A stretch of DNA of 64,000 nt, from NCBI GenBank assembly GCA_002841695.1, contig PHAN01000016.1, forward strand, positions 4,024 through 68,023, read 5' to 3'. The first letter of the stretch is position 1; every line of letters starts with the position of its first letter. The notes beneath the pieces were generated by a model. It saw only the letters and a program-made list of their open reading frames with translations. It made no database searches and was not told the origin of the DNA. Shown here piece after piece: positions 52 through 34,235 of the stretch. The stretch comes from Elusimicrobia bacterium HGW-Elusimicrobia-1 (GTDB taxonomy: Bacteria > Elusimicrobiota > Endomicrobiia > PHAN01). The position numbers were made by a program, and so were the translations under genes.

Positions 52-1509
52 ATGGACAGAAACCTCGTTGAAAAAGTCACAAAACAAGTTATCGCCGACT
101 ACAGCCGCAAGTCCTCGTCGCCGCGAAAGATTATGGCGGTTTTTATGGGCGGAGACCGTAATCTCGACGATGCGCTGTCGGCCGTTCGCGAAATAGCCCG
201 CGCGGGCAACGAAACCAAAATCCTGATAACCCGCTCCGCCGCCTCCGTGATAGGCGTTGACAGAATCAAAAATACTACCGGCGTTTCCGACGTGATAATC
301 GACGACGGCAAACAGAATTCCGTGGCGCTTTCGTCGTGGCCGGATGCTCTGGTTATAGCCACCCTCACTCTGAACGGTCTTTCCAAAATAGCCAATCTCA
401 TAACCGACACGCTTCACTCCAATATCGTCGTAGGATGTCTTGAAAGACAAGTGCCGGTTATCGCCGCGCGCGACGCGGTTTTCTGCTCCTGCCATCCGGA
501 GCCGTCTTCCGCGAGCGGCCTGGCCAGAAAAGTCGAGTCGATGGTTTACGATCTCAAAAATATGGGCGTAACGGTGACCACCGCCAAAAATCTCGCCCGC
601 GATACGTCCTCGGCGACGGGCGCCCCAATCAAAAAAATTGAAGTTACCGTCGGAACGGCGGGAAAAGTGTTTTCGTACACGCCGCCCGCGGCCGTTGGCC
701 CGGCCGATAATTGTCCTGCTTTTAAGGATGGCGCGGACTGCGCTTCCTGCGGTAAGTGCATTGAGAAAAAACCCGGTTCCGTCGGCGCGGTAATATCGGC
801 CGGCGCCGACCGCGTAAGCGCCAGTGCGGGTACGCTTGCCCCCGGAAAACTCGCCAATTACATCGACCATACTCTCTTGAAAGCCAACGCCACTCAGGAA
901 GAAATCGGCAAACTCTGCGAAGAAGCCGCCAAATATAAGTTCGTTTCCGTTTGCGTGAACCCCGCCTACGTGGCGATGTCCGCGCAGCTTTTGCGCGGCT
1001 CCGGCGTTAAGGTGTGCACGGTAATAGGATTTCCTCTGGGAGCCACAACGCCCACGGTAAAAGCCATCGAGGCCAGAGACGCCATAGCCAACGGAGCCGA
1101 CGAGATAGATATGGTCATAAACGTCGGAGCCCTTAAAAGCGGAAACCATCAGTTGGTTCTTGAAGATATAAAAGCGGTGCGCGAAGCGACGCGCGGCAAA
1201 ATACTCAAAGTCATTCTTGAAACCGCGTATCTCACGCGCGAAGAAAAAATCAAGGCCTGCGAATTATCCAAAGCGGCCGCCGCGGATTTTGTTAAAACTT
1301 CCACCGGCTTCGGCCCGTCGGGCGCGACCGCCGAGGATATAAAACTTATGCGCGACACCGTCGGGCCGTCGATGGGCGTAAAGGCCTCGGGCGGTATTCG
1401 TTCCACCGCCGACGCGACGGCAATGGTCGCCGCGGGCGCCACGCGCATAGGCGCCTCCGCCAGCGTGGCCATAGTGATGGGCAAAGACGCCGGCGCGGGA
1501 AAATATTAA
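52..1509 (+). CDS. deoC: Fusion protein: N-terminal amphipathic helix plus linker, RpiB/LacAB-like Rossmann domain, Cys-rich linker, deoxyribose-phosphate aldolase (DeoC) domain
   Basis: C-terminal ~220 aa carry class I DeoC hallmarks ([47 protein letters not shown]). N-terminal ~150 aa ([43 protein letters not shown]) resemble the RpiB/LacAB (or flavoprotein-like) fold but are degenerate. The linker contains [16 protein letters not shown]. Residues 4-16 ([13 protein letters not shown]) followed by SRKSSSPRK look like a BMC encapsulation peptide. ATG 52 is preceded by GGAGAAATC. Confidence 0.8.
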
Positions 1510-1513
1510 AAGC

Positions 1514-1598
1514 AGTGGCGAGTGGCTAGTGATTAGTGGATAGTAAAGTCAAGAAGTTTTTCTAGCCACTAGCCACTAATCACTAGTCACTAACCACC
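1514..1598. repeat. Inverted element built from tandem heptads (AGTGGNN x4.5 on the left arm, CTARYCA x5 on the right arm) between deoC-fusion stop and BMC-H start
   Basis: Read directly: agtggcg agtggct agtgatt agtggat agt ... ctagcca ctagcca ctaatca ctagtca ctaacca. The arms are roughly reverse-complementary. Related copies occur at 17542-17587, 34186-34219 and 34326-34362. Confidence 0.7.
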
Positions 1599-1613
1599 AT
1601 GGAGGTCGTAAAA

Positions 1614-1895
1614 ATGTCGGAAATCAAAGAAGCGTTGGGTATGATTGAAACCAGAGGGCTCATCGGAATGATTGAGGCCTCTGATGCCATGGTCAAAGCC
1701 GCCAAAGTCCGTCTCGTCGGATATGAAAAGATCGGCGCCGGATTGGTCACCTCTATGGTCAGAGGAGAGGTCGGAGCCGTTCGCGCCGCCGTGGAAGCCG
1801 GAGCCGCCGCCGCCCAGAAAGTCGGCGAACTCGTAAGCGTTCACGTGATACCGCGTCCGCACGAAGACGTTGAAAAAATAATCCCCAACAAATAA
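1614..1895 (+). CDS. Bacterial microcompartment shell protein, BMC-H (PduA/EutM/CcmK family, Pfam00936)
   Basis: Near-canonical BMC-H sequence: [91 protein letters not shown] lies 8 nt upstream of ATG 1614. The ORF track start at 1599 is an in-frame alternative. Confidence 0.92.
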
Positions 1896-1971: not shown

Positions 1972-2286
1972 ATGGATAAAAACGACATAGTCGACGTCGT
2001 GGCGGCCGTTCTTTCGTCCGCCCCCGCCCGCTCTTCCGGCGGCGAGCGGCCCGTTACGCCGTTTGGCGAGGCGGCCTCGCGGACGTATAAGTCCGGTGTT
2101 TACGCGTCAGGGTATCTGAAGCCGTTTACGGCGCTCAAAAGCGGTCGGCCTTTTCTGAGCGAGTACGACGTAAAGACAATGCTGAGTTCCAATCCGCGCG
2201 AAATAACGGTTCCCAAAAACGCCATTATCAGTCCGCTTGCCGAAGATCTTATACAGGAGAAAAACGTAAAAATCAATTATGTATGA
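1972..2286 (+). CDS. Hypothetical 104-aa protein with N-terminal encapsulation-peptide-like helix (DIVDVVAAVLSS) plus low-complexity linker; translationally coupled to pilT
   Basis: ORF with an amphipathic N-terminal helix followed by a Pro/Ser/Gly linker (APARSSGGERP). Its stop overlaps the pilT start (ATGTATGA at 2279-2286). No family recognised. Confidence 0.45.
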   Translation: MDKNDIVDVVAAVLSSAPARSSGGERPVTPFGEAASRTYKSGVYASGYLKPFTALKSGRPFLSEYDVKTMLSSNPREITVPKNAIISPLAEDLIQEKNVKINYV

Positions 2287-3355
2287 CGTAAAAAAACTTC
2301 TTGGCGCGATGATCCGCAACAACATATCGGACATCCATCTTAAATCTGATTCCGCGCCCTTAGTAAGAGTCAACGGAGAGCTTGTCACCGCGTCCGAGGA
2401 AAAGATAACGGCTGAAACGATGAAAACAATCGTTGAATCGGTGCTTTTGCCCGATCAGGCCGAGAAGTTTCGCAGGGATTGCGACATAGATTTTGCATAC
2501 TCCGTCGAAGGTCTTTCGCGGTTCCGCGTCAATATGAGCATGGAAAGGGGTAATCCGTCCATTGTTCTTCGAGTTATTCCGACGGAAGTAAAAACCTTTG
2601 AGGAACTCAACCTCCCCGACGAAGCATTCAGAAAACTCGCCAACGAATCCCGCGGGCTCATACTGATAGCGGGAATAACCGGCTCCGGAAAAACAACCAC
2701 TCTCAACGCCATTATCAATCACATCAACGAAAATACGCGCGCGAAGATCGTTACCATAGAAGATCCTATCGAGTATTATCATTTCGACAAAAAATCGTCG
2801 ATCTCGCAGCGCGAAATCGGCCGCGACGCCAAATCGTTTGAGAGCGCGCTGAAATATTCTCTCAGACAGGACCCCGATATCATAGTGCTGGGCGAACTCA
2901 GAGATTCCGAGTCGATGAAAGCCGCCATACTGGCCGCCGAGACCGGGCATCTGGTGCTTTCCACCATCCACACCATAGATACTTCTCAGACGATAGACCG
3001 CATCATCAGTTCTTACCCTCCGCATCTTCAGTCGGGCGTATGCGCCCAACTCGCCTATGTGGTCAAGGGGATAGTGGCACAGCGTCTGGTGCCTTCCAAA
3101 GATTGCTCCGCGCAATACCCCATTTGCGAGATACTTATAGGCACGTCGCTTATAAAAAATATCATCGCGGAGAAAAAGCTCGGCGATATAGCCAAGGCGC
3201 TTGAACAGGGCTCTTTTTACGGTATGCGCACGTTCGACCAGGATATATACAAGCTTTTTACCGAAGGTAAGATTTCGTCGGAAACCGCGTTTGAAAACGC
3301 CACTAACGTAGACGATCTGTCTTTGCGGCTAAAGGGTATAGAGCGAACCTCATAA
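2279..3355 (+). CDS. pilT: PilT-family type IV pilus retraction (twitching motility) ATPase
   Basis: Walker A GITGSGKTT, Asp box, Walker B DIIVLGELRD and His box TIHT are all present. Length 358 aa. N-terminus matches PilT-type (ISDIHLKSDSAPLVRVNGEL). Confidence 0.85.
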   Translation: MYDVKKLLGAMIRNNISDIHLKSDSAPLVRVNGELVTASEEKITAETMKTIVESVLLPDQAEKFRRDCDIDFAYSVEGLSRFRVNMSMERGNPSIVLRVIPTEVKTFEELNLPDEAFRKLANESRGLILIAGITGSGKTTTLNAIINHINENTRAKIVTIEDPIEYYHFDKKSSISQREIGRDAKSFESALKYSLRQDPDIIVLGELRDSESMKAAILAAETGHLVLSTIHTIDTSQTIDRIISSYPPHLQSGVCAQLAYVVKGIVAQRLVPSKDCSAQYPICEILIGTSLIKNIIAEKKLGDIAKALEQGSFYGMRTFDQDIYKLFTEGKISSETAFENATNVDDLSLRLKGIERTS

Positions 3356-3409
3356 AGGGACTTGCCTCCGCCCGCAGAGCCGACATCCGCAGTTGAAAGT
3401 CCGCGATCA

Positions 3410-5275
3410 ATGCTCAAAAAATGGGAATTTATCAGGCAGCCGGCGGAAAAAGATTCATCGCGCTGGCGTCTAAAACTCAAAATCGCCGAGGATGACGTCG
3501 ACAAAATCCTGGGCGAGCTGCCGGGCAATAAGGGAAGGCCGTTTCTGGTCGAGGACGGCGTCTTTGATTTCGGCGCGTATTTTTACAATCTCACGCAAAA
3601 CGACCACGCGGCCATAGCCGAAATACTCAAAAAGAAGTCGCCCGACGGCAAATGCGGCGGTTTTAACGAAGAAACCGAGGACGTTTTCGCTTCTCTGGCC
3701 GCCAAAATCGACGAATCCGCCCGCCTATCGCCGGTTTCTCAGGAATCCGCCAATCGTCCCGCGCCTCCTGCCGCGCCGCCATCCGGCCCACGCAACGGTC
3801 ATCACAACGGTAATAACGTCCCTGCTTCGCAGGCGGGCGCGGATGCTGCGGTCTCGCCGCAGGAAACTTATTCCGGCGCATTTCTCGTGGAGGATATGCC
3901 GCTTAATCCGGAGTATATTTTCGAGCAGTTTGTCGTGGGTTCCAATAATCGCTTTACCCACGCCGCCGCGCTCGCCGTGGCCAAGGCGCCCGGTAAAACT
4001 TACAATCCTTTCTTCATACACGGCGGCGTCGGCCTGGGTAAAACCCATTTGATGCAGTCCATCGGGCATTACGTCAAAAAAAACTTTCCGGATTTGAAGG
4101 TCCTCTATGTCACCACGGAGAAGTTCGTAGGCGACGTCATCGACGCCATAAGCCACGGCGAAAACAACGCTCTGAGGAACTTTTATAAAACCATCGACGT
4201 GCTTCTGGTCGACGATATACAGTCGCTGTCGCAATCCGAATCCATGCAGGACGAATTCTTTCATATTTTCAACCTGTTGCATCAGAATAAAAAACAGATA
4301 GTCATAACCTGCGACCGCCCGCCGAAACTTCTTAATATTCTGGAAGATCGGCTTCGCTCCCGTTTCGAGTGGGGGCTTATTGCCGATATGAAATCTCCCA
4401 CACTGGAAACAAGGGTCGCGATACTTAAGAAAAAAGAAGAAGCCGAGCATCTGGAACTCGACGATAATATACTGCTTTACATCGCTTCCAAGTTGAAATC
4501 CAATATAAGAGAACTCGAAGGTTTCCTGAAAAGAATAACCGCGTATTCCACGCTGACTAAGCAGGAAATCAATATTGCCCTGATAAAAACGCTTATGGCG
4601 GAACTTCTGCCCGGCGAGGAGAATCCGGATATTACCATGGCCGCCGAACAGGCAGCCAAGTCGCCTGTGCCGCAAATGCCGCCGCAGACAATTCCGAGTC
4701 AAAAAATACCCGAACACGATTCGCCCGAGCCGGAGCGTCCGTCTATGGATTCGCTTAGCGAGGCGGACATCAAAATAGTCCCCAAAGGCGTCCAATTTTC
4801 GCCCTCGCCGGCGCACACGATACCGCAGCCGGTTCATCAGCAGCCGTCCGTTCACGCCGCCGCGCACGCGTCATTGGATCCGACACTGCGTCCGGTTGAT
4901 GTGGTGTTCTTTTTTCCGTCGGGGAAAGAGAATGAACTGGCGAAAATAAAAGACAAGTTCGCCGAGGTCATCAAAAAACACAAACTCAAATTTCAACTCG
5001 TTTCCGTATTTGACAAACCATACGAAAATAAGGGCAAGATAAATTACGCCATGTTTACCGAACTCTGCAAGACAAACAAGGTCGGCATCTCCGTGGTGCT
5101 TGCGCCCCCGCCGGATGCGGGCATTCGGGAAGAGGATTTTGTCAATATTCTGGGAGCGATGATGAGCGATGAAAAAATATCTCTTCAACTGGTTCCGTGG
5201 AACGAGATAAACAAGGACTACCGCTATCTCAATCTGGCGTTGGATATAACACTTTCCGGCGCCGACGGCAAGTGA
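3410..5275 (+). CDS. DnaA-like AAA+ protein: DnaA domain III (including the RFEWGL signature) with non-DnaA N-terminal region and a ~230-aa C-terminal extension replacing DNA-binding domain IV
   Basis: NPFFIHGGVGLGKTHLMQSIG (Walker A), VLLVDDIQ (Walker B), RSRFEWGLIADMKSP (DnaA box VII) and ITCDRPP match DnaA domain III. No HTH domain IV sequence is present in any frame. The tail contains a Pro-rich linker and a distinct ~120-aa domain (VVFFFPSGKENELAKIKDKF...). An alternative TTG start exists at 3362. Confidence 0.7.
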   Translation: MLKKWEFIRQPAEKDSSRWRLKLKIAEDDVDKILGELPGNKGRPFLVEDGVFDFGAYFYNLTQNDHAAIAEILKKKSPDGKCGGFNEETEDVFASLAAKIDESARLSPVSQESANRPAPPAAPPSGPRNGHHNGNNVPASQAGADAAVSPQETYSGAFLVEDMPLNPEYIFEQFVVGSNNRFTHAAALAVAKAPGKTYNPFFIHGGVGLGKTHLMQSIGHYVKKNFPDLKVLYVTTEKFVGDVIDAISHGENNALRNFYKTIDVLLVDDIQSLSQSESMQDEFFHIFNLLHQNKKQIVITCDRPPKLLNILEDRLRSRFEWGLIADMKSPTLETRVAILKKKEEAEHLELDDNILLYIASKLKSNIRELEGFLKRITAYSTLTKQEINIALIKTLMAELLPGEENPDITMAAEQAAKSPVPQMPPQTIPSQKIPEHDSPEPERPSMDSLSEADIKIVPKGVQFSPSPAHTIPQPVHQQPSVHAAAHASLDPTLRPVDVVFFFPSGKENELAKIKDKFAEVIKKHKLKFQLVSVFDKPYENKGKINYAMFTELCKTNKVGISVVLAPPPDAGIREEDFVNILGAMMSDEKISLQLVPWNEINKDYRYLNLALDITLSGADGK

Positions 5276-6999: not shown

Positions 7000-8178
7000 A
7001 TGCAAATCAGATTAGCCGACAGATTGTCGCGGCTCGGCACCGAAACAGCGTTTGAAGTCCTGGCCAAAGCGAAAGCGCTCGAGGCCAAGGGCAAGGAAAT
7101 GGTGCATCTTGAAATCGGCGAGCCGGATTTCGATACTCCTAAAAATATCCGCGACGCCGCCAAGAAAGCCATCGACGACGGATGGACGCATTACGGGCCG
7201 TCGGCCGGGCTTCCGGAACACCGCGCGGCGATAGCCGAATATATCTCAAAAACCCGCGGCATAAAAGTGCTCCCGGAGGAAGTGGTGGTTACACCCGGCG
7301 CCAAACCCATAATCTTCTACACTATGCTCACGGTGTTGAAACCCCGCGACGAGGTTATCTATCCTAACCCGGGTTTTCCGATATACGAGTCGATGATAAA
7401 ATTCGTCAGCGGCATACCCGTGCCCATTCCCCTGCGCGAAGAAAACGACTTTAACTTCGACATAAAAGAATTCAAAAAACTGGTTACGCCCAACACCAAG
7501 GTCATAATACTCAACTCGCCTCAGAACCCCACGGGCGGAGTTCTTCCCAGAAAAGTTCTCGAGGAGATAGCCGATATAGTTCTTCAGCGCGACGACATCG
7601 TCGTTCTTTCCGACGAGGTTTACTCCCGTATGCTCTACGACGGACAGGAACATTTTTCCATTGCGTCCATACCCGGAATGAAGGACCGCACGATAATAAT
7701 CGACGGATATTCCAAAACCTACGCGATGACGGGCTGGCGCGCGGGTTACGGCGTTATGAACAAGGAATACGCCGGCTGGATGACTAAACTTATGACCAAC
7801 TCCAATTCCTGCACGGCTTCTTTCACGCAGATGGCCTGCATAGAGGCGTTGCGCGGCGACCAGAGCGAGGTCGACAAAATGGTTGCGGAGTTTGCCCGCC
7901 GCAGGGATGTTATGGTCGAAGGATTGAATAAAATCCCCGGCGTGAAATGCAAAAAACCCAAGGGAGCGTTTTACGTGTTCCCGAACTTCAGCGAATTCGG
8001 AATGAAGTCCAAAGAAATGGAAGAGTTCCTGCTGGAAGAGGCCGGCGTGGCCGCGCTTGCGGGAACATCCTTCGGAGATTACGGCGAGGGATACATACGT
8101 TTCTCTTACGCCAATTCCGTGGAGAACATCAAAAAGGCGCTTTCTAAAATAGAAACGGCCCTGAAGCGTCTCCGCTGA
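7000..8178 (+). CDS. Class I/II pyridoxal-phosphate aminotransferase (aspartate aminotransferase-like)
   Basis: AAT-like N-terminus (LSRLGTETAFEVLAKAKALEAKGKEMVHLEIGEPDFDTP). PLP-lysine region YSKTYAMTGWRAGY. GGAGG upstream of ATG 7000. Confidence 0.8.
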   Translation: MQIRLADRLSRLGTETAFEVLAKAKALEAKGKEMVHLEIGEPDFDTPKNIRDAAKKAIDDGWTHYGPSAGLPEHRAAIAEYISKTRGIKVLPEEVVVTPGAKPIIFYTMLTVLKPRDEVIYPNPGFPIYESMIKFVSGIPVPIPLREENDFNFDIKEFKKLVTPNTKVIILNSPQNPTGGVLPRKVLEEIADIVLQRDDIVVLSDEVYSRMLYDGQEHFSIASIPGMKDRTIIIDGYSKTYAMTGWRAGYGVMNKEYAGWMTKLMTNSNSCTASFTQMACIEALRGDQSEVDKMVAEFARRRDVMVEGLNKIPGVKCKKPKGAFYVFPNFSEFGMKSKEMEEFLLEEAGVAALAGTSFGDYGEGYIRFSYANSVENIKKALSKIETALKRLR

Positions 8179-8400
8179 TAAAAAGCATTTGACATCTCGT
8201 CGATAATTTCGTAGAATGTTCGGCTTTCCCCGATAGCCGCCGGGTTGTAGTTCTTCCGGCGGTCCGACGAAAATATCCACGCTTTGCGGATGGGCGTCGC
8301 GGCGCCGCTTCAAATCGCTTTCCCGACACAGTCGTTCCACAATATCAAAAGGAGGTCGGAAACCCTTCCAAAGAAAAAGACGGGGCTTCCGGTAATAACT

Positions 8401-10701
8401 ATGAGTCAGAAAGAAATCGTGAGCGCATCGGCGCTGGCGGCAAAAACATCGTATCCATCCTCGGAAATCGCATCGGCCGAACGGCTATTCGCGGCATATC
8501 GTTCGATAGTCGTAATGCTGTTCAACTTCGTGCAATCGGGCCATCCGGGCGGGTCGATATCGATGGGAAGGCCGCTGCTTAACATTACCCTCAATAAAAA
8601 CACCAAACTCGATATAACGGACCTCGACCGCCCCGACTCCGACATTATAGGTATGGCCGCCGGTCATAAGGCGCTGGGGCTGTATTCATATCTGGGGCTG
8701 CTCTTTGAGATAGTCAAAATAAAAGACCCCAAACTTTTTGAGTCGATAAAACGCAAAATGCGGTTCGAGGACCTTCTGGGCTTCCGCAAAAATCCCGCCA
8801 CCGAACTTCCTCTGATGAAGAAATTCTCTTCCAAGCGGCTCGACGGACATCCCACTCCCGAAACACCGGGCGTAGTGGTGGCTACGGGAGCGTCGGGCGT
8901 GGGTTTCGGCGCCCTGGGCGGATATGCTTTTGCCAAAAAAGAGTATTACGACGCGCCTCCGACGATAAACATTATCGAGGGAGAGGGGGGAATGACTCCC
9001 GGCCGCGTGCACGAGAATCTCGCGCATTTCTGGGCGCTGGACCTTTGGAATCTTATAATTCACGTCGACTGGAACAACGCATCCATCGACGCCGACAATG
9101 TGTGCGCCACGGACAAGTGCCGCGGACAATATGTCAACTGGTCGCCTCACACGCTGGGAGCATTGCACGGCCTCAACGTAGTTTACGTCGAAGACGGACG
9201 CGACCCTTCAAAAGTCCGCGCCGCGCAGGATCACGTATTCGGCGAATTTATGAGCCGGAAAGAATCGCCCAATATGATAGTGTACCGCACGGTGAAGGGC
9301 GAGGGATACTGGGAAGGAAGAAAGTCCCACGGCGCCGGATTCAAGACGGACGCGCCGGAGTATTTCGCCGCGCAGAAAACTTTCGAGGACGCTTTCAACG
9401 TAAAAATGATACCCGCCCCCGAAAAACTGACTCTTGAAACAAGAGAAGAGTATCTTTATAAAAATCTGCTCGTCGTCGAACAGGCGTTGAAATCCGACAC
9501 GAAACTCGTCGACTATGTATTCAACGCGCTGATGTCGTCCCGCGACGCCCTCAATAAAGCCGGCCGCAGGCCCGCGGCAAAAAGCGCCGATATATCGACG
9601 GTTAAGGCGCCGTCCGGCAAGTTCTCGGAAACGAATCCTCCCGCCGAAATCATCCATAAACCCGGTTCCGCGGTTACACTCAGGGAATCGCTCGGCAATA
9701 CGCTTCATTACTTCAACGCTTACACGGGCGGCGGTCTTTACGGCTTCGCGGCCGACCTCGTGGGTTCCACAAGCTTAAATCTTATGTGCGAGGACTTTCA
9801 GAAAAAGGGATTCCTCACCTGCGAAAATCCCTACGCCAAAATAATTCCCACGGGAATTTGCGAAGACGGCGGCTCGTCGCTGATATCGGGCATTTCGGCC
9901 ACCGGACATTATGTGGGAGTGGGAAGTTCGTACGCCACTTTCATGAGCCCCATGGGATTTACGGCCGCGCGGCTTTTTGCCATCGCCTACCAGGCGAAGC
10001 ACGGCGCCGATATGGCTCCGATGATACTGATTAACGCTCACGCGGGTCTTAAAACCGGAGAGGACGGACCGACTCACGCCTGTCCGCAGACCCTTTCTCT
10101 GTGGAAGGGATTTGATAAATTAAACGTGAAAGTTGTCACGCTTACTCCCTGGGATCCCAACGAAATCTGGCCGCTTATGATAGCGGCTCTCAAACTTCGT
10201 CCCGCCGTCATAATTCCTTACGTGACGCGGCCGGCCGAGACGGTTGTCGACAGGGAAAAAATAGGACTTCCTCCCGCCGCCGTCGCCGCCGCCGACGGCA
10301 TATACCGCGCGCGCACCGCTAAAAAATCTTCGAAAACGGTGATATATCAGGGCGCCGAAGTCGGCACGGAACTGCCGGGAGTGCTTGAAGCGCTGGACAA
10401 GGATGATGTTGACGTCAACATTCTCTACGTCGCGAGTTCCGAACTTTTCTCCAATCTTTCCGCCGATAAACGGGAAAAAATACTGCCGGTCGAGTTCAAG
10501 AAAAACGCTATGGCCGTCACCGGTTTTACGATTGATACAATGTACGAATACCTGCTTTCAGAAGAGGGCAGGGCAGCGTCGCTGCATCCTTTCAAGAAAG
10601 GCGTTTTCCTTGGTTCGGGACCGGGTTCGGAAGTGCTCAAACAGGCCGGACTCGACGCCGCTGCGCAAGTCAAAGCCATAAAAGAATTCGTCGGTAAGTG
10701 A
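8401..10701 (+). CDS. Divergent transketolase-family thiamine-diphosphate enzyme (766 aa)
   Basis: Collinear with transketolase: SGHPGGSIS (TK GHPG motif), GEGGMTPGRVHENLAHFWALDLWNLIIHVDWNNASID (TK GDGxxMEG...DNxISID). Carries extra insertions and a longer C-terminus than canonical Tkt. Confidence 0.6.
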   Translation: MSQKEIVSASALAAKTSYPSSEIASAERLFAAYRSIVVMLFNFVQSGHPGGSISMGRPLLNITLNKNTKLDITDLDRPDSDIIGMAAGHKALGLYSYLGLLFEIVKIKDPKLFESIKRKMRFEDLLGFRKNPATELPLMKKFSSKRLDGHPTPETPGVVVATGASGVGFGALGGYAFAKKEYYDAPPTINIIEGEGGMTPGRVHENLAHFWALDLWNLIIHVDWNNASIDADNVCATDKCRGQYVNWSPHTLGALHGLNVVYVEDGRDPSKVRAAQDHVFGEFMSRKESPNMIVYRTVKGEGYWEGRKSHGAGFKTDAPEYFAAQKTFEDAFNVKMIPAPEKLTLETREEYLYKNLLVVEQALKSDTKLVDYVFNALMSSRDALNKAGRRPAAKSADISTVKAPSGKFSETNPPAEIIHKPGSAVTLRESLGNTLHYFNAYTGGGLYGFAADLVGSTSLNLMCEDFQKKGFLTCENPYAKIIPTGICEDGGSSLISGISATGHYVGVGSSYATFMSPMGFTAARLFAIAYQAKHGADMAPMILINAHAGLKTGEDGPTHACPQTLSLWKGFDKLNVKVVTLTPWDPNEIWPLMIAALKLRPAVIIPYVTRPAETVVDREKIGLPPAAVAAADGIYRARTAKKSSKTVIYQGAEVGTELPGVLEALDKDDVDVNILYVASSELFSNLSADKREKILPVEFKKNAMAVTGFTIDTMYEYLLSEEGRAASLHPFKKGVFLGSGPGSEVLKQAGLDAAAQVKAIKEFVGK

Positions 10702-10800
10702 CTATGTCATTCTGAGGAGTCACCTTGCGGGTGACGACGAAGAATCTTGTCTTAATAGATTCTTCGCTTCTCTCAGAATGACGTGATTCGGACAATAATT
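10702..10800. repeat. Nested-palindrome intergenic repeat (MITE/REP-like), related to the copy at 27676-27900
   Basis: gtcattctgagg...ctcagaatgac (11-nt IR), gtcacc/ggtgac and gaagaatct/agattcttc sub-palindromes. A 27-nt block agattcttcgcNNCNctcagaatgacg is shared with 27805-27831. Confidence 0.6.
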
Positions 10801-12510
10801 ATGCAGATAAGCGAACTGATTCGCGCGGCATCCGGAAGCGTCAAGCCGGATTTATGCCTGAAAAACGGCCGGGTCGTCAACGTGCTTTCGGGCGAAATCG
10901 AACGCGCCGATATTCTGGTGCACAAGGGCTATATAGCGGCCGTCGGCGCGCATTTGCCCCGCGCCCGACATTCCATAGATATGGGCGGATCGTTTGTCGC
11001 GCCCGGTTTTATCGACGGTCACGTGCATATAGAGTCGTCGATGATGTCCGTATCCGAGTTCGCCCGCGCCGTGTCGTCGCGCGGTGTGACATCGGTAATC
11101 ACCGACGCCCACGAAATCGCCAACGTTCTTGGCATCGACGGAATAAAGTATATGCTTGAATCGGCAAAATATCAGCCGCTTAATGTATTTTTTATGCTTC
11201 CGTCGTGCGTTCCCGCCACCAAAATGGAAACGGCGGGCGCGCGTTTGTCCGGCTTCGACCTTTATCCGTTTCTTAAAGAAAAGTGGGTGGTCGGCCTGGG
11301 CGAAGTAATGAATTTTCCCGGCGTCATAATGGCCGACGAGGATTTGCTCGACAAAATGAAGATTGCCGCCGGCAAAAGAATCGACGGGCATTCTCCCGGA
11401 CTTTCCGGAGCGGGTCTGGCCGCCTATATAGCATCCGGCATAACGTCGGACCACGAATCCACCACCCTTGCGGAGGCGCGCGAAAAACTTCGCAGAGGAA
11501 TGTACGTAATGGTTCGCGAAGGCACTTCCGAGAAGAATCTCGCATCCCTGATACCTCTTGTCAACGAAAAAAATTACTCGCGCTTTTTCTTTGTTTCCGA
11601 CGACAGACATCCGCACGACCTGGTGAAAGAGGGTTCCATAGATCATCTTGTAAGAAAAGCCGTGTCTCTGGGTCTGGCCCCCCTGACGGCCATAAGAATG
11701 GCCACGATAAACACTGCGGAATACTTCCGTCTTCCGCGCATCGGCGCGCTGGCTCCGGGTTATCAGGCCGACATCGCCGTGTTCGACAGTATGCGCGCAA
11801 TTCGTCCGCGAATGGTTATGCGGCGCGGCGCGGTAGTCGCCAAAGACGGGAAGTTCGTTGCGCGCAAAGTCCGCATCGCGGCCCGTCTCAGAGGTTCGGT
11901 AAATGTGCGATGGCTCGACGCAAAAGATTTCGCGGTGCGCGCCGAGGGAAAGCGCATTAAAGTAATCGAGGTCGTTCCCCATCAAATAGTAACCCGCAAA
12001 AAAATAATGCGCGCAAAGGTCGAAAAAGGCCTGGCCGTTTCCGATACGGCGAACGACGCGCTTAAAATGGTCGTGGTGGAACGGCATCAGGCGTCGGGCG
12101 CAATCGGCAAAGGATTTGTGAAGGGCTTCGGTCTTAAAAGGGGCGCGATAGCCCAGTCCGTCGCGCACGACTCGCATAATATCATAGCGGTCGGCGCCGA
12201 CGACCGGTCCATTTATTCGGCCTGCGTCGACATAGTAAAAATGGGCGGCGGTTTAAGCGTTGCCGACGGCGACAACATTCTTGCGCGTATGCCTCTGCCG
12301 ATAGCCGGACTTATGACCGACGAGCCGCTTGAGTCGGTAGTGACGTCTCTGGAAGAACTGCTTGCCGCGGCGCGAAAACTCGGCTGCGGATTGCCCGATC
12401 CGTTTATGACGCTGTCTTTTATGGCGCTGCCGGTAATACCGGAACTGAAACTGACGGATAAAGGTCTTGTCGACGTAAATAAAATGAAAATTACGGAGCT
12501 TTTCGAATGA
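10801..12510 (+). CDS. ade: Adenine deaminase
   Basis: GFIDGHVHIESSMM metal-binding motif and overall collinearity with Ade (~570 aa). GTG 10783 is an alternative start. Confidence 0.85.
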   Translation: MQISELIRAASGSVKPDLCLKNGRVVNVLSGEIERADILVHKGYIAAVGAHLPRARHSIDMGGSFVAPGFIDGHVHIESSMMSVSEFARAVSSRGVTSVITDAHEIANVLGIDGIKYMLESAKYQPLNVFFMLPSCVPATKMETAGARLSGFDLYPFLKEKWVVGLGEVMNFPGVIMADEDLLDKMKIAAGKRIDGHSPGLSGAGLAAYIASGITSDHESTTLAEAREKLRRGMYVMVREGTSEKNLASLIPLVNEKNYSRFFFVSDDRHPHDLVKEGSIDHLVRKAVSLGLAPLTAIRMATINTAEYFRLPRIGALAPGYQADIAVFDSMRAIRPRMVMRRGAVVAKDGKFVARKVRIAARLRGSVNVRWLDAKDFAVRAEGKRIKVIEVVPHQIVTRKKIMRAKVEKGLAVSDTANDALKMVVVERHQASGAIGKGFVKGFGLKRGAIAQSVAHDSHNIIAVGADDRSIYSACVDIVKMGGGLSVADGDNILARMPLPIAGLMTDEPLESVVTSLEELLAAARKLGCGLPDPFMTLSFMALPVIPELKLTDKGLVDVNKMKITELFE

Positions 12511-13715
12511 CGCGCAAACTCGTCGCGCTTGTCATACTCGATTCATTCGGCGCGGGAGCCCTTCCCGACGCCGCTGAATACGGCGATGCGGGCGCCGACA
12601 CGCTCGGTCACATCGCCGGACAAACCAAGAATTTTAATCTGCCCAATCTGGCGCGGCTGGGACTTTATGAATTGATAGCTCCTTCGGCCCGGCCGGCTTT
12701 TCCGCCCGGAAAAATCACCGGCTGCTACGGCAAAATGGCCGAGGCCTCGGACGGTAAAGACACGCCCATAGGCCACTGGGAGATAACGGGACTTATCACC
12801 GAAAAACCGCTGCCCACTTATCCCGACGGCTTTCCCAAAGAATTAATCGAGCGCTATGAAAAAATCATAGGCGTCAAAACCCTCGGCAATTACGCCGCCT
12901 CCGGCACGGAGATTTTAAAACAACTCGGCGACGAGCATTACAAAACCGGATATCCGATAGTATACACTTCGGCCGACAGCGTTTTTCAGGTGGCCGCGCA
13001 CGAGGATCCCAAAATTTTCGGGCTCAAAAAACTTTACGAAATATGCGAAGCCGTCAGAAAAATGCTGGCGCCTCCGCATAACGTGGGCCGCGTTATCGCG
13101 CGGCCGTTTATCGGCGAGCCGGGGGCGTTTGCGCGCACGTCGAACCGTCACGATTACGCCCTCGACCCCGCCGGCGAGACGCTTCTTGACAAACTCCGGA
13201 AAGCCGGCGTGAGAGTGTCGGCCGTCGGAAAAATATACGACATATTCAACGGTAAAGGCATCGACGAAACCGTTCGCACGCGCGACAACCGCGACGGAAT
13301 GGCGCGAACGCTTGAAGCCGTCCGCAAAGCCGTCGACGGGCCGTCGGGAACCAAAACTTTCGTGTTCACGAATCTGGTCGATTTCGATATGCTCTGGGGA
13401 CATCGCAGAAATGTCGCGGCTTATTACGAGGGGCTTAAGGAGTTCGACGATTTTCTGCCGCGGCTGGAAGATGCTCTCGGCGATGAAGGCGTTCTTCTGA
13501 TAGCGGCCGACCACGGCTGCGACCCCGCCTACGCCGCTCATACCGACCACACCCGCGAACACGTGCCCGTGCTTGTCTCGGGACAAGGCGTTAAGAAAGG
13601 AATAAATCTGGGCGTCCGCAAAACCTTCGCCGACGCCGGGCAGACAATATCCGAATTGTTCGGGGCGGAGCGAACCGCCGCGGGAGTTTCATTCGCCAAG
13701 GAAATAGTTCTTTGA
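12507..13715 (+). CDS. deoB: Phosphopentomutase
   Basis: N-terminus VILDSFGAG, followed by GHWEITG and AADHGCDP motifs typical of DeoB. Its start overlaps the ade stop. Confidence 0.9.
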   Translation: MTRKLVALVILDSFGAGALPDAAEYGDAGADTLGHIAGQTKNFNLPNLARLGLYELIAPSARPAFPPGKITGCYGKMAEASDGKDTPIGHWEITGLITEKPLPTYPDGFPKELIERYEKIIGVKTLGNYAASGTEILKQLGDEHYKTGYPIVYTSADSVFQVAAHEDPKIFGLKKLYEICEAVRKMLAPPHNVGRVIARPFIGEPGAFARTSNRHDYALDPAGETLLDKLRKAGVRVSAVGKIYDIFNGKGIDETVRTRDNRDGMARTLEAVRKAVDGPSGTKTFVFTNLVDFDMLWGHRRNVAAYYEGLKEFDDFLPRLEDALGDEGVLLIAADHGCDPAYAAHTDHTREHVPVLVSGQGVKKGINLGVRKTFADAGQTISELFGAERTAAGVSFAKEIVL

Positions 13716-14746
13716 GCGCTTCCTTGTTACTTATCGTTTTGATAGTTGTTGTCGCGTTGGCGTTCGATTTTACCAATGGATTCAACGACTCCGCCAATAT
13801 TGTGGCGGCCGCCATAATGTCCCGCGCCATAGGACCGTCGACGGCGTTGTTGTTGGCGGCAGTTTCGGAATTCGTGGGAGCGTATTTTTTGGGAACGGCG
13901 GTCGCTTCAACGGTAGGGAAAGGCATCATAGACCCCGCGGGATTTACCGCTTCGGGCGGCGCCGCCGGCGGACTTGCGATTCTTTCGGCGCTGTTCGGCG
14001 CCATAGCGTGGAACGTAACTTCGTTGAGAATGGGAGTGCCGTCGTCGTCTTCGCACGCGCTCATAGGCGGACTTATCGGAGCATTCATAGCACTGGCCGG
14101 ATTTCACAGCGTTTACTGGAACAAGGTCGCGCAGGTAATCTCTATAATGATAATATCGCCTGTCATCGGAATTGCCTCGACTTTTATATTCGCGAAACTC
14201 ACGTTGCTGTTTGCATCGTGGAGTTCTCCGCGCATAAACAAGATATTCCGCAAGTTTCAGATCGTCGCTCTCGTGACACAGGCGCTTGCGCATGGCACCA
14301 ACGACGCGCAGAAGACAATGGGAGTGATAACTTTTGCTTTGATAGCGATGGGCTTTCTTGCCGCGCCCGATGCCGCCGCCGCGCTGGTCGTGCCCAAATG
14401 GGTAACAGCCGCCTGCGCCGCGGCGATAGCGCTTGGAATGGGTTCGGGCGGACGCAAGATAATAAAAACTCTCGGCGGAAAACTTTATAAAATCCGGCCC
14501 GTTCACGGCTTCGCTTCTCAGACGGCTTCGTCATTGATAATCGCGGCGACATCGTTTTTCGGATATCCCATTTCGACGTCGCAGGTCATTTCGTCTTCGG
14601 TGATGGGCGCCGGCGCGGCATTCCGCCCCAAAATGGTCCGGTGGCAGGTCGCAAAGGATATGGGTATGGCGTGGCTCGTAACCATACCGGTGAGCGCCCT
14701 TGTCTCGGCTTTGATTTTTTCGGTCGTCAAAAAGATTTTACTTTAA
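13712..14746 (+). CDS. Inorganic phosphate transporter, PiT family
   Basis: Polytopic membrane protein with PiT signatures (FDFTNGFNDSAN and a second HGTNDAQK repeat). Confidence 0.85.
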   Translation: MSASLLLIVLIVVVALAFDFTNGFNDSANIVAAAIMSRAIGPSTALLLAAVSEFVGAYFLGTAVASTVGKGIIDPAGFTASGGAAGGLAILSALFGAIAWNVTSLRMGVPSSSSHALIGGLIGAFIALAGFHSVYWNKVAQVISIMIISPVIGIASTFIFAKLTLLFASWSSPRINKIFRKFQIVALVTQALAHGTNDAQKTMGVITFALIAMGFLAAPDAAAALVVPKWVTAACAAAIALGMGSGGRKIIKTLGGKLYKIRPVHGFASQTASSLIIAATSFFGYPISTSQVISSSVMGAGAAFRPKMVRWQVAKDMGMAWLVTIPVSALVSALIFSVVKKILL

Positions 14747-14776
14747 CAAAAACCTCGCGGCATAAGGAAGGTTAAC

Positions 14777-15379
14777 ATGTGGCCTTTTAAAAAACGTCCC
14801 GATTTTTTCGATATGCTCGCGGCGCAATCGGCAAAAGTCGAGGAAGGACTGCAGACGCTTGTCGAGTTTATGGATGAACCGTCCAAAGAAAAAGCAAAAA
14901 AAATTAACGATCTTGAGGAAGAGGCGGACGAACTCCGCAGAGTGTTAATCGACGAATTGAACCGCACTTTCGTCACGCCGATAGACCGCGAGGATATATT
15001 CGCCCTGTCGCGCGACATCGACGATTTGATAGATTACGCTAAATCCACCGTCGAGGAAATGACTCTTTTTGAAGTCAAACCGGATATATCCATAAAAAGC
15101 ATGGTCGAAGCTCTTTCCGGCGCGGCGCGCGAGATAAACTTTGCGATGAAAAATCTCAAAGAACGTCCCGGCGTGGCCGAGGAACACATAGTAAGAGCCA
15201 AAAAAATAGAGAATTATGTAGAACATCGTTACAGGGAAGGTTTAGCCGAATTATTTAAGACAAACGACACCATAAATATAATGAAAACACGCGAGATTTA
15301 CCGCCACCTTTCCAACGCGGCCGACCGCGTATCGGACGCCGCCGACGTTATGGGCGATATTCTCGTTAAAACCGCATAA
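14777..15379 (+). CDS. DUF47/PhoU-like phosphate-transport accessory protein (PiT partner)
   Basis: Typical DUF47 N-terminus (FFDMLAAQSAKVEEGLQTLVEFM...EEEADELRR). Conserved pairing immediately downstream of a PiT gene. Confidence 0.75.
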   Translation: MWPFKKRPDFFDMLAAQSAKVEEGLQTLVEFMDEPSKEKAKKINDLEEEADELRRVLIDELNRTFVTPIDREDIFALSRDIDDLIDYAKSTVEEMTLFEVKPDISIKSMVEALSGAAREINFAMKNLKERPGVAEEHIVRAKKIENYVEHRYREGLAELFKTNDTINIMKTREIYRHLSNAADRVSDAADVMGDILVKTA

Positions 15380-15395
15380 AGGGAGACGTAGTAAG

Positions 15396-16214
15396 ATGAC
15401 TATAATTGAAAAACTCAAAGAATCCGAAAATTTTCTTGAGACCAAAACATCCATACGGCCCGAGATAGCGCTGGTTCTGGGCTCAGGTCTCGGCGGCGTG
15501 GTGGATATTATCGGGAACAAAACCGTGATACCTTACAAAGATATACCGCATTTTCCCGTGTCCACCGTTTGCGGACACGCCGGACAGCTCGTATTCGGAA
15601 CGCTCGAAGGCAAGTCGGTCGTGGCTATGCAGGGCCGCGTGCATTTTTACGAAGGGCATCCGATGAGCGTAGTCACCTATCCGATACGCCTGATGAAAAA
15701 ACTCGGCTGTTCCAAATTGATACTGACCTCCGCGGTGGGAGGTATAAACGAGAGCTATGCGCCCGGCGACGCCGTGGTCATAACCGACCATATAAACTTT
15801 ATGGGCACGAATCCTCTTATAGGCGGGCATTGCGACGATTTCGGACAGAGATTCCCGGATATGAGCCGCGTATACTCGTCGCGCCTGGCGGGCATTGCGA
15901 TTGATACCGCCCAAAAAATGAACATCCGCGCCCACGTCGGCGTTTATTTCGCGTCGACCGGCCCGTCATACGAGACACCTTCGGAAGTCAGGGCTTTTGC
16001 CAAACTCGGCGGCGACGTCGTGGGAATGTCGGTTGTGCCGGAAGCCATAGTGGCCAACCAGTCGGGCATTGAACTTCTGTGCCTTTCTTATGTGTCGAAT
16101 ATGGCCAGCGGAATTTCCAAAAAAGGACTCTCTCACGAAGAAGTCATGGAAGTCGGACGTGAGGCCGGCGGCCGCCTGTCTAAACTTATTGCCGCGGTCG
16201 TTAAGTCGGCTTAA
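15396..16214 (+). CDS. Purine nucleoside phosphorylase (trimeric PNP-I family, PunA/DeoD-type II)
   Basis: ALVLGSGLGG phosphate-binding motif, HFYEGH, and VGMSVVPEA. Confidence 0.85.
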   Translation: MTIIEKLKESENFLETKTSIRPEIALVLGSGLGGVVDIIGNKTVIPYKDIPHFPVSTVCGHAGQLVFGTLEGKSVVAMQGRVHFYEGHPMSVVTYPIRLMKKLGCSKLILTSAVGGINESYAPGDAVVITDHINFMGTNPLIGGHCDDFGQRFPDMSRVYSSRLAGIAIDTAQKMNIRAHVGVYFASTGPSYETPSEVRAFAKLGGDVVGMSVVPEAIVANQSGIELLCLSYVSNMASGISKKGLSHEEVMEVGREAGGRLSKLIAAVVKSA

Positions 16215-16229
16215 ACGCGGGAGATATAT

Positions 16230-17540
16230 ATGAGAATATACGACATAATCTATAAGAAGAGAAATAATCTGGAACTTTCCGCCGACGAAATTAAATATAT
16301 CGTCGAGGCGTATACCAAAGGCGACGTCCCCGACTACCAGATGGCGGCCTTTCTTATGGCCGTTTTTATACGGGGGATGGCCGACGCCGAACTGGCCGAA
16401 CTCACGGCCGCTATGACCGAATCCGGCGAGATAATGGATTTGTCCGACATAAAATCGCCCAAAATCGACAAACACTCCACGGGCGGCGTGGGCGACGGCA
16501 TATCGCTGGCGCTGGCGCCCCTTGCGGCCAGTTTCGGCGTGGTCGTGCCTATGATGTCCGGCAGAGGACTGGGGCATACCGGCGGCACTCTGGACAAACT
16601 CGAATCGATACCCGGTTTCAGGGTGGATCTTTCCGCGGGCGATTTCAAAAAGCAACTCGATAAAATAGGCGTCGCGATAATAGGTCAGACGGAAAAAGTC
16701 GCCCCGGCCGACAAAAAAATCTACGCTCTGCGCGATGTCACCGCCACGGTCGACTCCATACCTCTTATAGCCGCTTCCATAATGTCCAAGAAACTCGCCG
16801 AAGGCGCCGATGGTCTTCTGCTCGACGTAAAAACCGGCTCCGGCGCGTTTATGAAAACGCTCGAAGATTCAAAAAAACTAGCCGGAGTTATGGTAGCCAT
16901 AGGCCGCAAGTCCGGTAAAACTATGCGTGCCGTGATTACCGATATGAGCCAACCGCTGGGGAATGCGGTCGGTAATTCGCTTGAAATCGAACAGACGGTT
17001 TCCGTGCTCAAAGGCCGCGGCCCCGAAGATTTCAGCTCGCTTGTCGTAGAACTCGCCGCGCGGATGATAGTGATGGCCGGCGTTTTTGACAAAATTGAAG
17101 ACGCCCGTTCCGCCGCCGCAAAAAATCTTTCGTCGGGCGCCGCGCTTGCAAAATTCGCCGCTATGGTCGAAGCTCAGGGCGGCGACCCCGAAGTGGCCGC
17201 GTCTCCGGATAAAATTCTGCCTCGCTCCAAATTCGCGGAGGACATAAAAATTCCGGGCGGCGGTTATATATCGGAAATTAAGACCGACGACGTCGGCATA
17301 TGTTCTTTGGAACTGGGCGCCGGCCGCGCCAGTAAGGAAGATAAGATAGATTACTCCGCCGGAATAGTCCTGCATAAAAAGGTCGGCGACAAGATATCGT
17401 CCGACGAGGCCGTCGCGACATTTTCGTATAACAAAGCGCGTTCGCCCATTTCGGAAATAAAGAAAAAGTTCGCCGAATGTTTCAAGGTGTCTCAAACGCC
17501 GCCGCAAAAGCCGCGGATGATTCACGACGAGATAAAGTAA
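16230..17540 (+). CDS. pdp: Pyrimidine-nucleoside (thymidine) phosphorylase
   Basis: KHSTGGVGD, a Gly-rich loop and overall Pdp/DeoA collinearity (436 aa). Confidence 0.9.
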   Translation: MRIYDIIYKKRNNLELSADEIKYIVEAYTKGDVPDYQMAAFLMAVFIRGMADAELAELTAAMTESGEIMDLSDIKSPKIDKHSTGGVGDGISLALAPLAASFGVVVPMMSGRGLGHTGGTLDKLESIPGFRVDLSAGDFKKQLDKIGVAIIGQTEKVAPADKKIYALRDVTATVDSIPLIAASIMSKKLAEGADGLLLDVKTGSGAFMKTLEDSKKLAGVMVAIGRKSGKTMRAVITDMSQPLGNAVGNSLEIEQTVSVLKGRGPEDFSSLVVELAARMIVMAGVFDKIEDARSAAAKNLSSGAALAKFAAMVEAQGGDPEVAASPDKILPRSKFAEDIKIPGGGYISEIKTDDVGICSLELGAGRASKEDKIDYSAGIVLHKKVGDKISSDEAVATFSYNKARSPISEIKKKFAECFKVSQTPPQKPRMIHDEIK

Positions 17541-17541
17541 A

Positions 17542-17587
17542 AGTGAATAGTGGTTAGTCTTTTACTATTCACTAACCACTAACCACT
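17542..17587. repeat. Heptad-repeat hairpin element (CACTAAC x2.5 with inverted partner) immediately 5' of recJ
   Basis: agtgaatagtggttagtc tttt actattcactaaccactaaccact. Same module family as 1514-1598. Confidence 0.65.
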
Positions 17588-17603
17588 TGTCCTACACACT
17601 ACA

Positions 17604-34219: not shown

Positions 34220-34235
34220 ATAAAACGGATAGCAT

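Follow-up and report, generated by a model that had tools for sequence, protein, structure and literature searches.

Microcompartments of the SPU type are among the most widespread bacterial microcompartments (BMCs), and to our knowledge experiments on them have been confined to the deoxyribose-phosphate aldolase (DERA) and the ribose-5-phosphate isomerase (RPI) of SPU6. This work found the SPU6 DERA to be active, described N-terminal extensions specific to BMCs on SPU DERAs, and proposed that an accessory partner of DERA serves packaging, not catalysis, and that SPU compartments catabolise deoxyribose-5-phosphate derived from DNA (Dwyer, Sutter & Kerfeld 2024, PMC11585597). In the 2021 catalog of BMC loci, SPU1 shells were described with a charge-complementary pair of BMC-H hexamers (PMC8217296 supplement), a few SPU1 loci were found to be split in two, and the BMC-T protein of HGW-Elusimicrobia-1 (CVU77_03345) is entered under 'SPU1 (main)' (Sutter et al. 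2021, PMC8217296). Here we analyse a stretch of 64,000 nucleotides from the metagenome-assembled genome (MAG) of the same organism, Elusimicrobia bacterium HGW-Elusimicrobia-1 (contig PHAN01000016.1; the whole stretch is called the window below). Its first 2.3 kb encode a DERA fusion protein (open reading frame 1, ORF1), a BMC-H shell protein and a small protein bearing an encapsulation peptide (EP)-like start (ORF3), and very probably represent a satellite module of an SPU1-type compartment; this assessment leaves aside any scaffold role of ORF1.

The locus shares with the SPU1 of Elusimicrobia (Sutter et al. 2021, PMC8217296) the organism group, the gene set and the charge-complementary BMC-H pair, and it also has in common with catalogued SPU1 the BMC-P triplet, the PduS/PduT pair, an aldehyde dehydrogenase (AldDH), a phosphotransacylase (PTAC) and a triose-phosphate isomerase (TIM). 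It differs from the catalog in that the triad of DERA, BMC-H and ORF3 is the detached part. Moreover, the catalog leaves the pfam01791 extension unidentified, whereas here it would consist of an EP-like helix, an HFCD-type fold and a four-Cys motif. As in the SPU3 RPI-DERA chimera, an accessory Rossmann-type protein is placed N-terminal to DERA, and as in other SPU DERAs the signature enzyme carries an N-terminal extension that non-BMC DERAs lack (PMC11585597). In contrast to the systems of that study, the partner in ORF1 is PF02441/HFCD-like and not a PF02502 RPI, separate RPI genes coexist with the fusion, and the extension spans about 260 residues compared to about 70 in SPU6; the four-Cys motif is unmentioned there.

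A second set of relatives comprises the PF02441 'flavoproteins' of PVM (PvmL), EUT2, GRM and BUF loci and the TIGR02536 proteins, which likewise combine an HFCD-type fold, an N-terminal EP and a place in a BMC locus. The hidden Markov model (HMM) set of Sutter et al. includes EP models for the PF02441 proteins of PVM, GRM1B, GRM2, BUF1B and EUT2A/B/C/E/I. Unlike these stand-alone proteins, the domain is fused to DERA in our locus and the tail domain resides on a separate small protein. The compartment is already known and catalogued, which largely explains the locus; the undescribed detail is the extension of DERA by an EP, an HFCD-like domain and a Cys motif. In the searchable literature we found no description of this extension, of its split-gene counterpart, of the TIGR02536 kinship or of the ORF3 family.

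A probable satellite module of an SPU1-type locus

ORF1 (52..1509, + strand; 485 aa) begins 51 nt inside the window and is annotated by NCBI as deoxyribose-phosphate aldolase; its sequence matches a protein record of HGW-Elusimicrobia-1 at 100% identity. It comprises an EP-like peptide, the HFCD-like domain, a linker, the four-Cys motif and a DERA (DeoC) TIM-barrel domain (835..1491, +; residues 262-480). In HMM searches the latter matches TIGR00126 deoC over residues 267-475 with 294.6 bits (cutoff 117.3) and Pfam DeoC (PF01791) at E 7.8e-19 (68.6 bits against 23.8). D353, K386 and K415, which we equate by motif with D102, K167 and K201 of E. coli DERA, are identical in 66 of 66 homologs. The complete DeoC aldolase proposed in a first-pass annotation of the window, made without database searches, is therefore borne out, with its catalytic residues intact. 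SPU-type compartments are defined by a DERA with a BMC-specific N-terminal extension adjoining shell genes (PMC11585597), and this combination is found with ORF1, which on sequence grounds is the signature enzyme of an SPU1 microcompartment.

The adjoining gene (1614..1895, +; PKN00948.1) encodes a PduA/EutM-like BMC-H shell hexamer of 93 aa. A Shine-Dalgarno sequence GGAGG (1601..1605, +) lies 8 nt upstream of its start codon; this site and all gene calls including that of NCBI favour the ATG at 1614, and the ORF lister gave 1599. The protein matches Pfam BMC (PF00936) at E 4e-29 (100.8 bits against 24.5) and the EutM model with 137 bits, and its edge lysine and PRPH motif are canonical, in line with its initial description as a PduA/CcmK-like hexamer. 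It carries KAAK and IPRPH edge motifs where the BMC-H of the main locus described below has KAAN and PQP, which identifies it as the KAAK/PRPH partner in the charge-complementary SPU1 pair. The gene is under strong purifying selection, with 86-91% amino acid identity to relatives in its clade and a dN of 0.06-0.09 at saturated dS. The stretch after it (1900-1965) folds no better than shuffled sequences in a terminator test.

A search with 16 SPU proteins (tblastn) found no other shell gene and no AldDH, PTAC, PduS or RPI gene in the 64-kb window or in the 10 kb upstream. This agrees with the earlier observation of a single shell gene and no BMC-P in the window. The accompanying expectation that the rest of the locus lies upstream of the window edge failed: ORF1 is preceded by Memo/AMMECR1 on the opposite strand and then by surface-protein genes, and the main locus is on another contig. 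We reached this main locus by ranking AldDH matches against a sister genome; the AldDH concerned (P0237) and the window protein come from the same two JGI samples. The locus (L078/L077) reads TIM-PTAC-...-BMC-H-BMC-P-AldDH-(toxin-antitoxin insert)-PduS-BMC-T-RPI-RPI-TPR-lipoprotein-BMC-P-BMC-P and holds a second BMC-H, three BMC-P, BMC-T, AldDH, PTAC, PduS and two RPI genes. Its BMC-T, BMC-H and two BMC-P proteins are, as exact sequences, PKN01982, PKN01974, PKN01990 and PKN01975 of HGW-Elusimicrobia-1. The L078 contig also resembles the window in tetranucleotide composition (r = 0.965) and contains the same genome-specific heptad repeat. Hence, the SPU gene set of RPI, AldDH, BMC-P triplet, BMC-H and BMC-T occurs in one genome, via L078/L077 and outside the window, and the further shell genes that had been expected elsewhere in the genome are present, BMC-P included. 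It is this main locus of the same MAG on another contig that leads us to read the beginning of the window as a satellite.

Comparison with related loci (L numbers) indicates how the split is distributed. In L006, L008, L009 and L016 (44-62% identity) there is one contiguous locus, in the order TIM-PTAC-BMC-H-BMC-P-AldDH-PduS-BMC-T-RPI(x2)-...-BMC-P-BMC-P-[HFCD-DERA]-BMC-H-small ORF. In the closest relatives, L013 and L014 (74-76% identity), Memo/AMMECR1 lies upstream of DERA on the opposite strand, and L012 and L011 begin just before DERA. In the sister genome GCA_041694835.1 the two parts also lie on different contigs, with the main locus on 45 and the satellite on 84. In metagenome 3300002733, the main locus L076 (on a 221-kb contig) ends after the third BMC-P and is followed by HD and TGT genes, and the satellite is located on a separate contig (L011). 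The satellite module would thus have split off from a locus that was contiguous in the ancestor, with the break immediately upstream of DERA.

Alternatively, the triad could be a decaying remnant, an orphan shell gene and a cytosolic DERA left behind after loss of the compartment. The single shell gene between -10 kb and +64 kb and the breaks in the main locus by toxin-antitoxin, secretin-like and lipoprotein genes would be expected in this case. However, the full set of shell and enzyme genes listed above is intact in the same MAG, the window BMC-H is under purifying selection, EP-like peptides are kept on ORF1 and ORF3, and at least four genomes share the split arrangement. We consider decay very improbable.

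The interruptions of the L078 main locus are found at 7322-9155, 11539-14031, 16024-16493 and 17399-18459, with the shell and enzyme genes intact. The intervening genes seem unrelated to the compartment. Two MNT/HEPN toxin-antitoxin pairs and an HSDR_N protein are inserted between AldDH and PduS; the other insertions are a secretin-like gene, a ParE-type pair, and a TPR protein together with a lipobox lipoprotein, with signal peptides. In the main locus of the sister genome (L019), AldDH and PduS are about 6.8 kb apart (11402-18195), and part of the AldDH C-terminus (29 aa, 86% identical) is duplicated at 11913-11999. The DERA protein P0003 was recovered in two assemblies, of which L012 contains an intact 93-aa BMC-H gene (1616-1897) and L011 only its last ~28 codons (1865-1948), reflecting either an assembly artefact or a strain-level deletion.

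The extension of DERA contains an HFCD-like domain

The first-pass annotation had described the region after the N-terminal helix and linker of ORF1 as a degenerate, possibly non-catalytic RpiB/LacAB-like Rossmann domain. Its first part stands: residues 26-190 (127..621, +) form a Rossmann-type alpha/beta domain with a pLDDT (the per-residue confidence of the model) of about 97-98 in an AlphaFold2 model that covers residues 1-270 and used an alignment of 60 sequences. The assignment to RpiB/LacAB has to be replaced by PF02441. Pfam Flavoprotein (PF02441) matches residues 41-138 at E 4.7e-9 (36.5 bits, gathering threshold 22.7), and in a Foldseek search of the PDB all of the top 50 matches are PF02441 proteins, with E-values from about 5e-8. 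They include UbiX, PPC decarboxylase/HAL3, the cysteine decarboxylases SpaF, TvaF and MrsD, and CoaBC. A profile of 16 N-domains searched against the PDB retrieved HFCD proteins only, apart from one spurious designed repeat protein. Because HMM, fold and profile searches agree, we regard the domain as HFCD-like and not RpiB-like; on this sequence and model evidence it is a degenerate member of the HFCD/UbiX Flavoprotein family PF02441.

A degenerate isomerase would not be without precedent, since RPI-DERA fusions occur in SPU3 and in Marinimicrobia, and the segment FMGGDRNL superficially resembles the GSDHAG/GSDHSG loop after strand 1; the RPIs of this genome read GSDHSG and GSDHAG. The GGDRNL element itself is located as first noted (148..165, +; residues 33-38), directly after beta-strand 1. 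Nevertheless, the Pfam search gave no match to PF02502 (LacAB_rpiB) in ORF1 at E <= 0.1, hhalign of the domain with 11 SPU RPI proteins returned a probability of 0.2%, RpiB is absent from the PDB profile matches, which point to HFCD proteins, and from the top lists of the fold search, and loci with the fusion carry separate RPI genes. An RpiB/LacAB origin of the domain therefore has a negligible likelihood. In the HMM checks that had been suggested, Flavoprotein, DeoC and BMC match and LacAB_rpiB does not; a flavoprotein fold, a predicted N-terminal helix and vertex genes in the genome were all found.

As an HFCD enzyme, the domain is probably catalytically dead, judging from its aligned residues. 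Ser90 of ORF1 aligns with the catalytic His of SpaF, at a position that is variable in the family, and also aligns just before I91 of AtHAL3a, the catalytic His of which we take to be His90. The catalytic His expected before a PASANT-type motif is absent from the domain. At the position of the TGS of dipicolinate synthase B, the loop that follows strand 1 has GGD(R), which places an acidic residue at the Ser position. In HFCD enzymes the TGS-type loop contacts the phosphate of flavin mononucleotide (FMN), and the GGD loop of ORF1 suggests a loss of FMN binding. GGDR, N108, K112, D119 and D141 are near-invariant in the N-domain family.

A candidate encapsulation peptide and a four-Cys motif

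The N-terminus of ORF1 has an EP-like amphipathic helix (residues 3-20, pLDDT about 80-93 in the AlphaFold2 model) and a short linker (residues 21-25), together at 58..126 (+). In dozens of full-length homologs, the pattern xxxLVExITxEVxxR(L/Y) is kept over the first ~17 residues, and a linker of ~5-40 residues rich in Pro, Ala, Ser and Gly separates the peptide from strand 1. This conserved terminal motif followed by a variable linker gives the N-terminus the anatomy of a BMC encapsulation peptide, and a targeting role is probable on these comparative grounds. The features by which EPs are recognised, namely a terminal amphipathic helix of ~15-20 aa, a poorly conserved linker and occurrence in BMC homologs only, are all seen in ORF1. 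The hydrophobic moment of residues 4-17 is 0.43, a value that we take to be similar to those of Pdu EPs and that 9% of shuffled sequences reach. The N-termini of AldDH, PTAC and ORF3 of the same genome match the pattern as well. Moreover, in L015 (GCA_022707085.1) the fusion is represented by two adjacent genes encoding 188 aa (EP and HFCD-like domain) and 332 aa (EP, Cys motif and DERA), and the two proteins start with nearly identical peptides, MDKGLVEEIVREVVSRYSKK and MEKELVEKIVKEVVSRYSKK. The EP-like start that had been noticed in ORF1 is thus supported by both the predicted helix and the conserved LVExITxEV core.

In the full-length model of ORF1, the N-domain and DERA are both confident, and a flexible interdomain linker (622..696, +; residues 191-215) lies between them, with a pLDDT below 50 at residues 193-215. 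The Cys motif C-P-x7-C-x2-C-G-x-C follows (712..759, +; C221, C230, C233 and C236), in a region of moderate pLDDT (53-71). As the initial description of a conserved Cys motif implied, each of the four cysteines is either invariant or at least 90% conserved among 60-66 full-length homologs. Their C-P...CxxCGxC spacing presumably recalls half of a [4Fe-4S] ferredoxin site, and the motif may form a metal or Fe-S site within the DERA extension. Cys-rich BMC-specific extensions have been noted on other cargo enzymes (2021 catalog, PMC8217296).

SPU1 DERAs without the HFCD-like domain (L025, L026, L030, L032, L043, L054, L058, L059) show a different conserved Cys/His pattern, H-T-x3-5-C-P-H-C ... 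C-x-P-x-K-x-C. In L027, L033 and L065-L070, which make up a third group, an acidic stretch that contains His takes its place. The putative metal site therefore varies by lineage.

The HFCD-like domain and the Cys motif could together form an active redox module with flavin and an Fe-S cluster, coupled to PduS/PduT and DERA, that recycles NAD+/NADH or moves electrons across the shell. Several observations are consistent with such a module: the PF02441 score exceeds the gathering threshold, the Cys spacing resembles half of a ferredoxin site, the main locus contains PduS and a PduT-type BMC-T, the conserved GGDR, N108, K112, D119 and D141 suggest a ligand site, and flavin-binding Pfams including PF02441 recur in BMC loci (Axen et al. 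2014). They are opposed by the Ser in place of the HFCD catalytic His (at a position variable in the family), by the acidic residue where the TGS loop of dipicolinate synthase B has Ser, and by the Fer4 family, for which the Pfam search gave no match in ORF1. Furthermore, DERA chemistry needs no redox cofactor, and many SPU1 DERAs are without both the HFCD domain and this Cys pattern. Overall, we consider an active redox module unlikely, although it carries more weight than the isomerase and decay scenarios.

ORF3 and the relationship to TIGR02536 proteins

ORF3 (1972..2286, +; 104 aa) consists of an EP-like helix, which starts with MDKNDIVDVVAAVLSS, a variable linker and a conserved C-terminal domain of ~45 aa. 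A search of 1.84 billion proteins yields 66 representatives of its family (E <= 1e-3), all of them small, and no relative was found in Pfam or the PDB. TIGR02536 is matched by 34 of 44 family members (best E 1.8e-9); ORF3 of the window scores 32.4 bits at model positions 162-204 of 207, compared to a cutoff of 152.6. The N-domain of ORF1 and the C-terminal domain of ORF3 correspond to the two ends of the full-length TIGR02536-like protein of L009 (202 aa): in hhalign the N-domain aligns to residues 4-155 (probability 96.5%) and ORF3 to residues 159-202 (95.6%). Since ORF1 scores 15.4 bits with the TIGR02536 model, far under the same cutoff, the homology holds at the domain level only. On these alignments the N-domain is related to the BMC-associated TIGR02536 proteins.

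We considered ORF3 and the HFCD-like domain as obligate partners, that is, as a split TIGR02536 protein, and rejected this idea as ORF3 is also encoded in SPU loci without the domain. In almost all of the SPU1-type loci examined, an ORF3 homolog comes after DERA and BMC-H, whether the HFCD domain is present or not, and ORF3 is therefore better described as a general SPU accessory protein than as a dedicated partner of the N-domain. In its layout, ORF3 resembles PduM, a low-abundance structural protein of the Pdu compartment (PMC12108088), which is also small, has an N-terminal helix resembling a signal sequence and lacks an enzymatic signature. The TIGR02536-like relative has a faint similarity to the C-terminus of PduM (E 0.004-0.008). 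Direct comparison of ORF3 with PduM gave no significant similarity, and one of 44 family members matches Pfam PDU_like (E 0.095).

A tentative scaffold role for the N-terminal domain

What the domain does in ORF1 is a more tentative matter. We favour, at somewhat less than an even chance, that the 165 residues constitute a dead HFCD-fold module which acts as an oligomerising scaffold that docks to the shell or the core. Given that HFCD proteins are obligate trimers and that DERA forms dimers, the fusion could cross-link cargo or park DERA beneath a shell tile. A scaffold would be consistent with the replacement of the catalytic His by Ser, with the GGD at the TGS-aligned loop and with the confident alignment to the TIGR02536-like protein. 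For Listeria, a 2026 complex atlas predicts a TIGR02536 trimer stacked on an EutL trimer. This predicted stack, together with the trimeric state of HFCD proteins, is the reason for our preference. In a more specific version, the EP and the HFCD-like trimer would dock on a three-fold tile (BMC-T/BMC-H), placing DERA and the metal or Fe-S site under the pore, and deoxyribose-5-phosphate would be cleaved on entry; this arrangement appears distinctly unlikely, more so than the redox module.

Several points weigh against our interpretation. The near-invariance of GGDR, N108, K112, D119 and D141 means that some specific interface or ligand is preserved in the N-domain, which suggests something other than a featureless scaffold and makes a cofactor-binding role conceivable. 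The amphipathicity statistic of the ORF1 helix is only marginally above that of shuffled sequences, and a partnership of the N-domain with ORF3 is unsupported by co-occurrence. Furthermore, what we say of the encapsulation of ORF1, its oligomeric state, its content of flavin or metal and its aldolase activity is inferred throughout. Finally, the pfam01791 extensions of SPU1 were reported as ones that 'do not resemble EPs' (Sutter et al. 2021, PMC8217296). Contrary to that report, the comparative evidence presented here argues that the SPU1 DERA extension does carry an EP-like peptide.

The intercistronic hairpin is a dispersed repeat

Between ORF1 and the BMC-H gene lies a hairpin (1514..1597) of inverted arrays of the 7-nt repeats GTGGCTA/GTGATTA, the stem of which ends 3 nt ahead of the BMC-H Shine-Dalgarno sequence. 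The spacer (1510-1613) folds with -43.8 kcal/mol (z = -7.2), and none of 200 shuffles folds as well. While this confirms the structured heptad-repeat element first reported at this position, the element is not a feature of the BMC module. Copies with the same 7-nt units (GTGGTTA-like) are found at 17543-17587 and 34186-34357 in the window, at two sites upstream of it (L001 4027-4194 and 9449-9537) and at L078 18787-18814 in the main locus, and two long copies have a MITE-like core of ~110 nt in common. Related genomes contain heptad hairpins with other units (GGACAGA, GTAAGTT, GAATAGC, TTACATC). From this distribution, the hairpin belongs, as one copy, to a family of intergenic repeats dispersed over the genome and is not BMC-specific. 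The heptanucleotide STRR repeats of cyanobacteria and the palindromic REP and MITE sequences are intergenic, dispersed elements, and the repeat resembles them in its location, tandem 7-nt units and hairpins. It differs from them by its pairs of inverted arrays, some around a conserved ~110-nt core, and by units that change between related genomes.

Such a stable stem, 3 nt from a Shine-Dalgarno sequence, might instead be a dedicated regulator that sets the ratio of DERA to BMC-H by mRNA processing, stabilisation or attenuation, and the long heptad hairpins of a different unit in the same spacer of L013 and L006 are in favour of this. However, copies of the same unit are found in unrelated intergenic spacers of the window, L001 and L078, the two long copies have the MITE-like core, and the DERA/BMC-H spacers of L014, L012, L008 and L016 are devoid of a hairpin. 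The stem is followed by CCATGGAGG and has no T-run, the terminator scan makes no call at 1514-1597, and neither hairpin type has an Rfam family. A dedicated regulator is thus rather improbable.

Neighbouring genes and a possible substrate supply

The satellite module stands at the head of a nucleoside-scavenging island of ~35 kb. Downstream of the module, a + strand run of ~26 kb (8284-34185) carries genes for the scavenging of nucleosides, nucleotides and DNA. The first part of this run (8284..17540, +) holds candidate genes for the supply of deoxyribose-5-phosphate: transketolase, adenine deaminase, phosphopentomutase DeoB (12507-13715, +; 503 bits), a phosphate transporter, a PhoU-like protein, and phosphorylases, among them a purine nucleoside phosphorylase (15396-16214, +) and a pyrimidine-nucleoside phosphorylase (16230-17540, +). 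A RecJ-like exonuclease with an RNase_T domain follows (17604-19826, +). The run as a whole includes three nucleoside phosphorylases, two of purine type and one for pyrimidines, as well as an adenosine deaminase, a PfkB kinase, an ATP-cone uridine-kinase-like protein, phosphate transporters, a dGTPase-like HD protein and a PLD-type nuclease with a FlgD Ig-like domain. L006 and L016 have aminotransferase, transketolase, adenine deaminase and DeoB genes downstream. By gene content, the run fits the published proposal that SPU compartments consume deoxyribose-5-phosphate.

Taken together, these genes suggest the following route. Nucleoside phosphorylases and phosphopentomutase encoded just downstream would provide deoxyribose-5-phosphate, which the DERA domain of ORF1 would cleave within the shell into glyceraldehyde-3-phosphate plus acetaldehyde. 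AldDH and PTAC of the distal main locus would convert acetaldehyde via acetyl-CoA to acetyl-phosphate. The amphipathic peptide at its N-terminus would probably direct ORF1 to the lumen, the window BMC-H would contribute one of the two charge-complementary hexamers of the shell, and ORF3 would be a small EP-bearing accessory protein.

Directly after the triad, the window encodes a PilT-family ATPase (2279-3355; TIGR01420, 415 bits) and a DnaA-like AAA+ protein (3362-5275). The latter matches only positions 99-347 of 437 of the DnaA model and has a different C-terminus of ~200 aa, and thus lacks the DNA-binding domain IV. A DnaA-like gene is also found downstream of the triad in L006, L008 and L011-L016, and in all of these loci except L006 and L015 a PilT-like gene lies beside it. 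An origin of replication as breakpoint of the locus, considered on account of the DnaA-like gene and the strand switch, was discarded since the GC skew shows no switch. Within the PilT-like coding sequence (2561-2611), a glutamine riboswitch model scores 25.6 bits (gathering threshold 35; E 0.017), probably by chance.

Implications

Our analysis corrects the annotation of this locus: ORF1 is not an RPI fusion, and the BMC-H gene is not an isolated shell gene. The candidate targeting peptide, the HFCD-like domain and the Cys cluster of ORF1, together with the separate EP-tagged form of the domain, provide concrete constructs for tests of cargo packaging in SPU compartments. They moreover connect SPU with the 'flavoprotein' accessory proteins that are so far unexplained in Eut, Grm and Pvm compartments. 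If the EP and the domain act as a shell-docking adaptor for the aldolase, the stand-alone PF02441 and TIGR02536 proteins of the Eut, Grm, Pvm and Buf compartments would play the same part for other cargo, and a function would be assigned to a widespread, uncharacterised class of BMC proteins.

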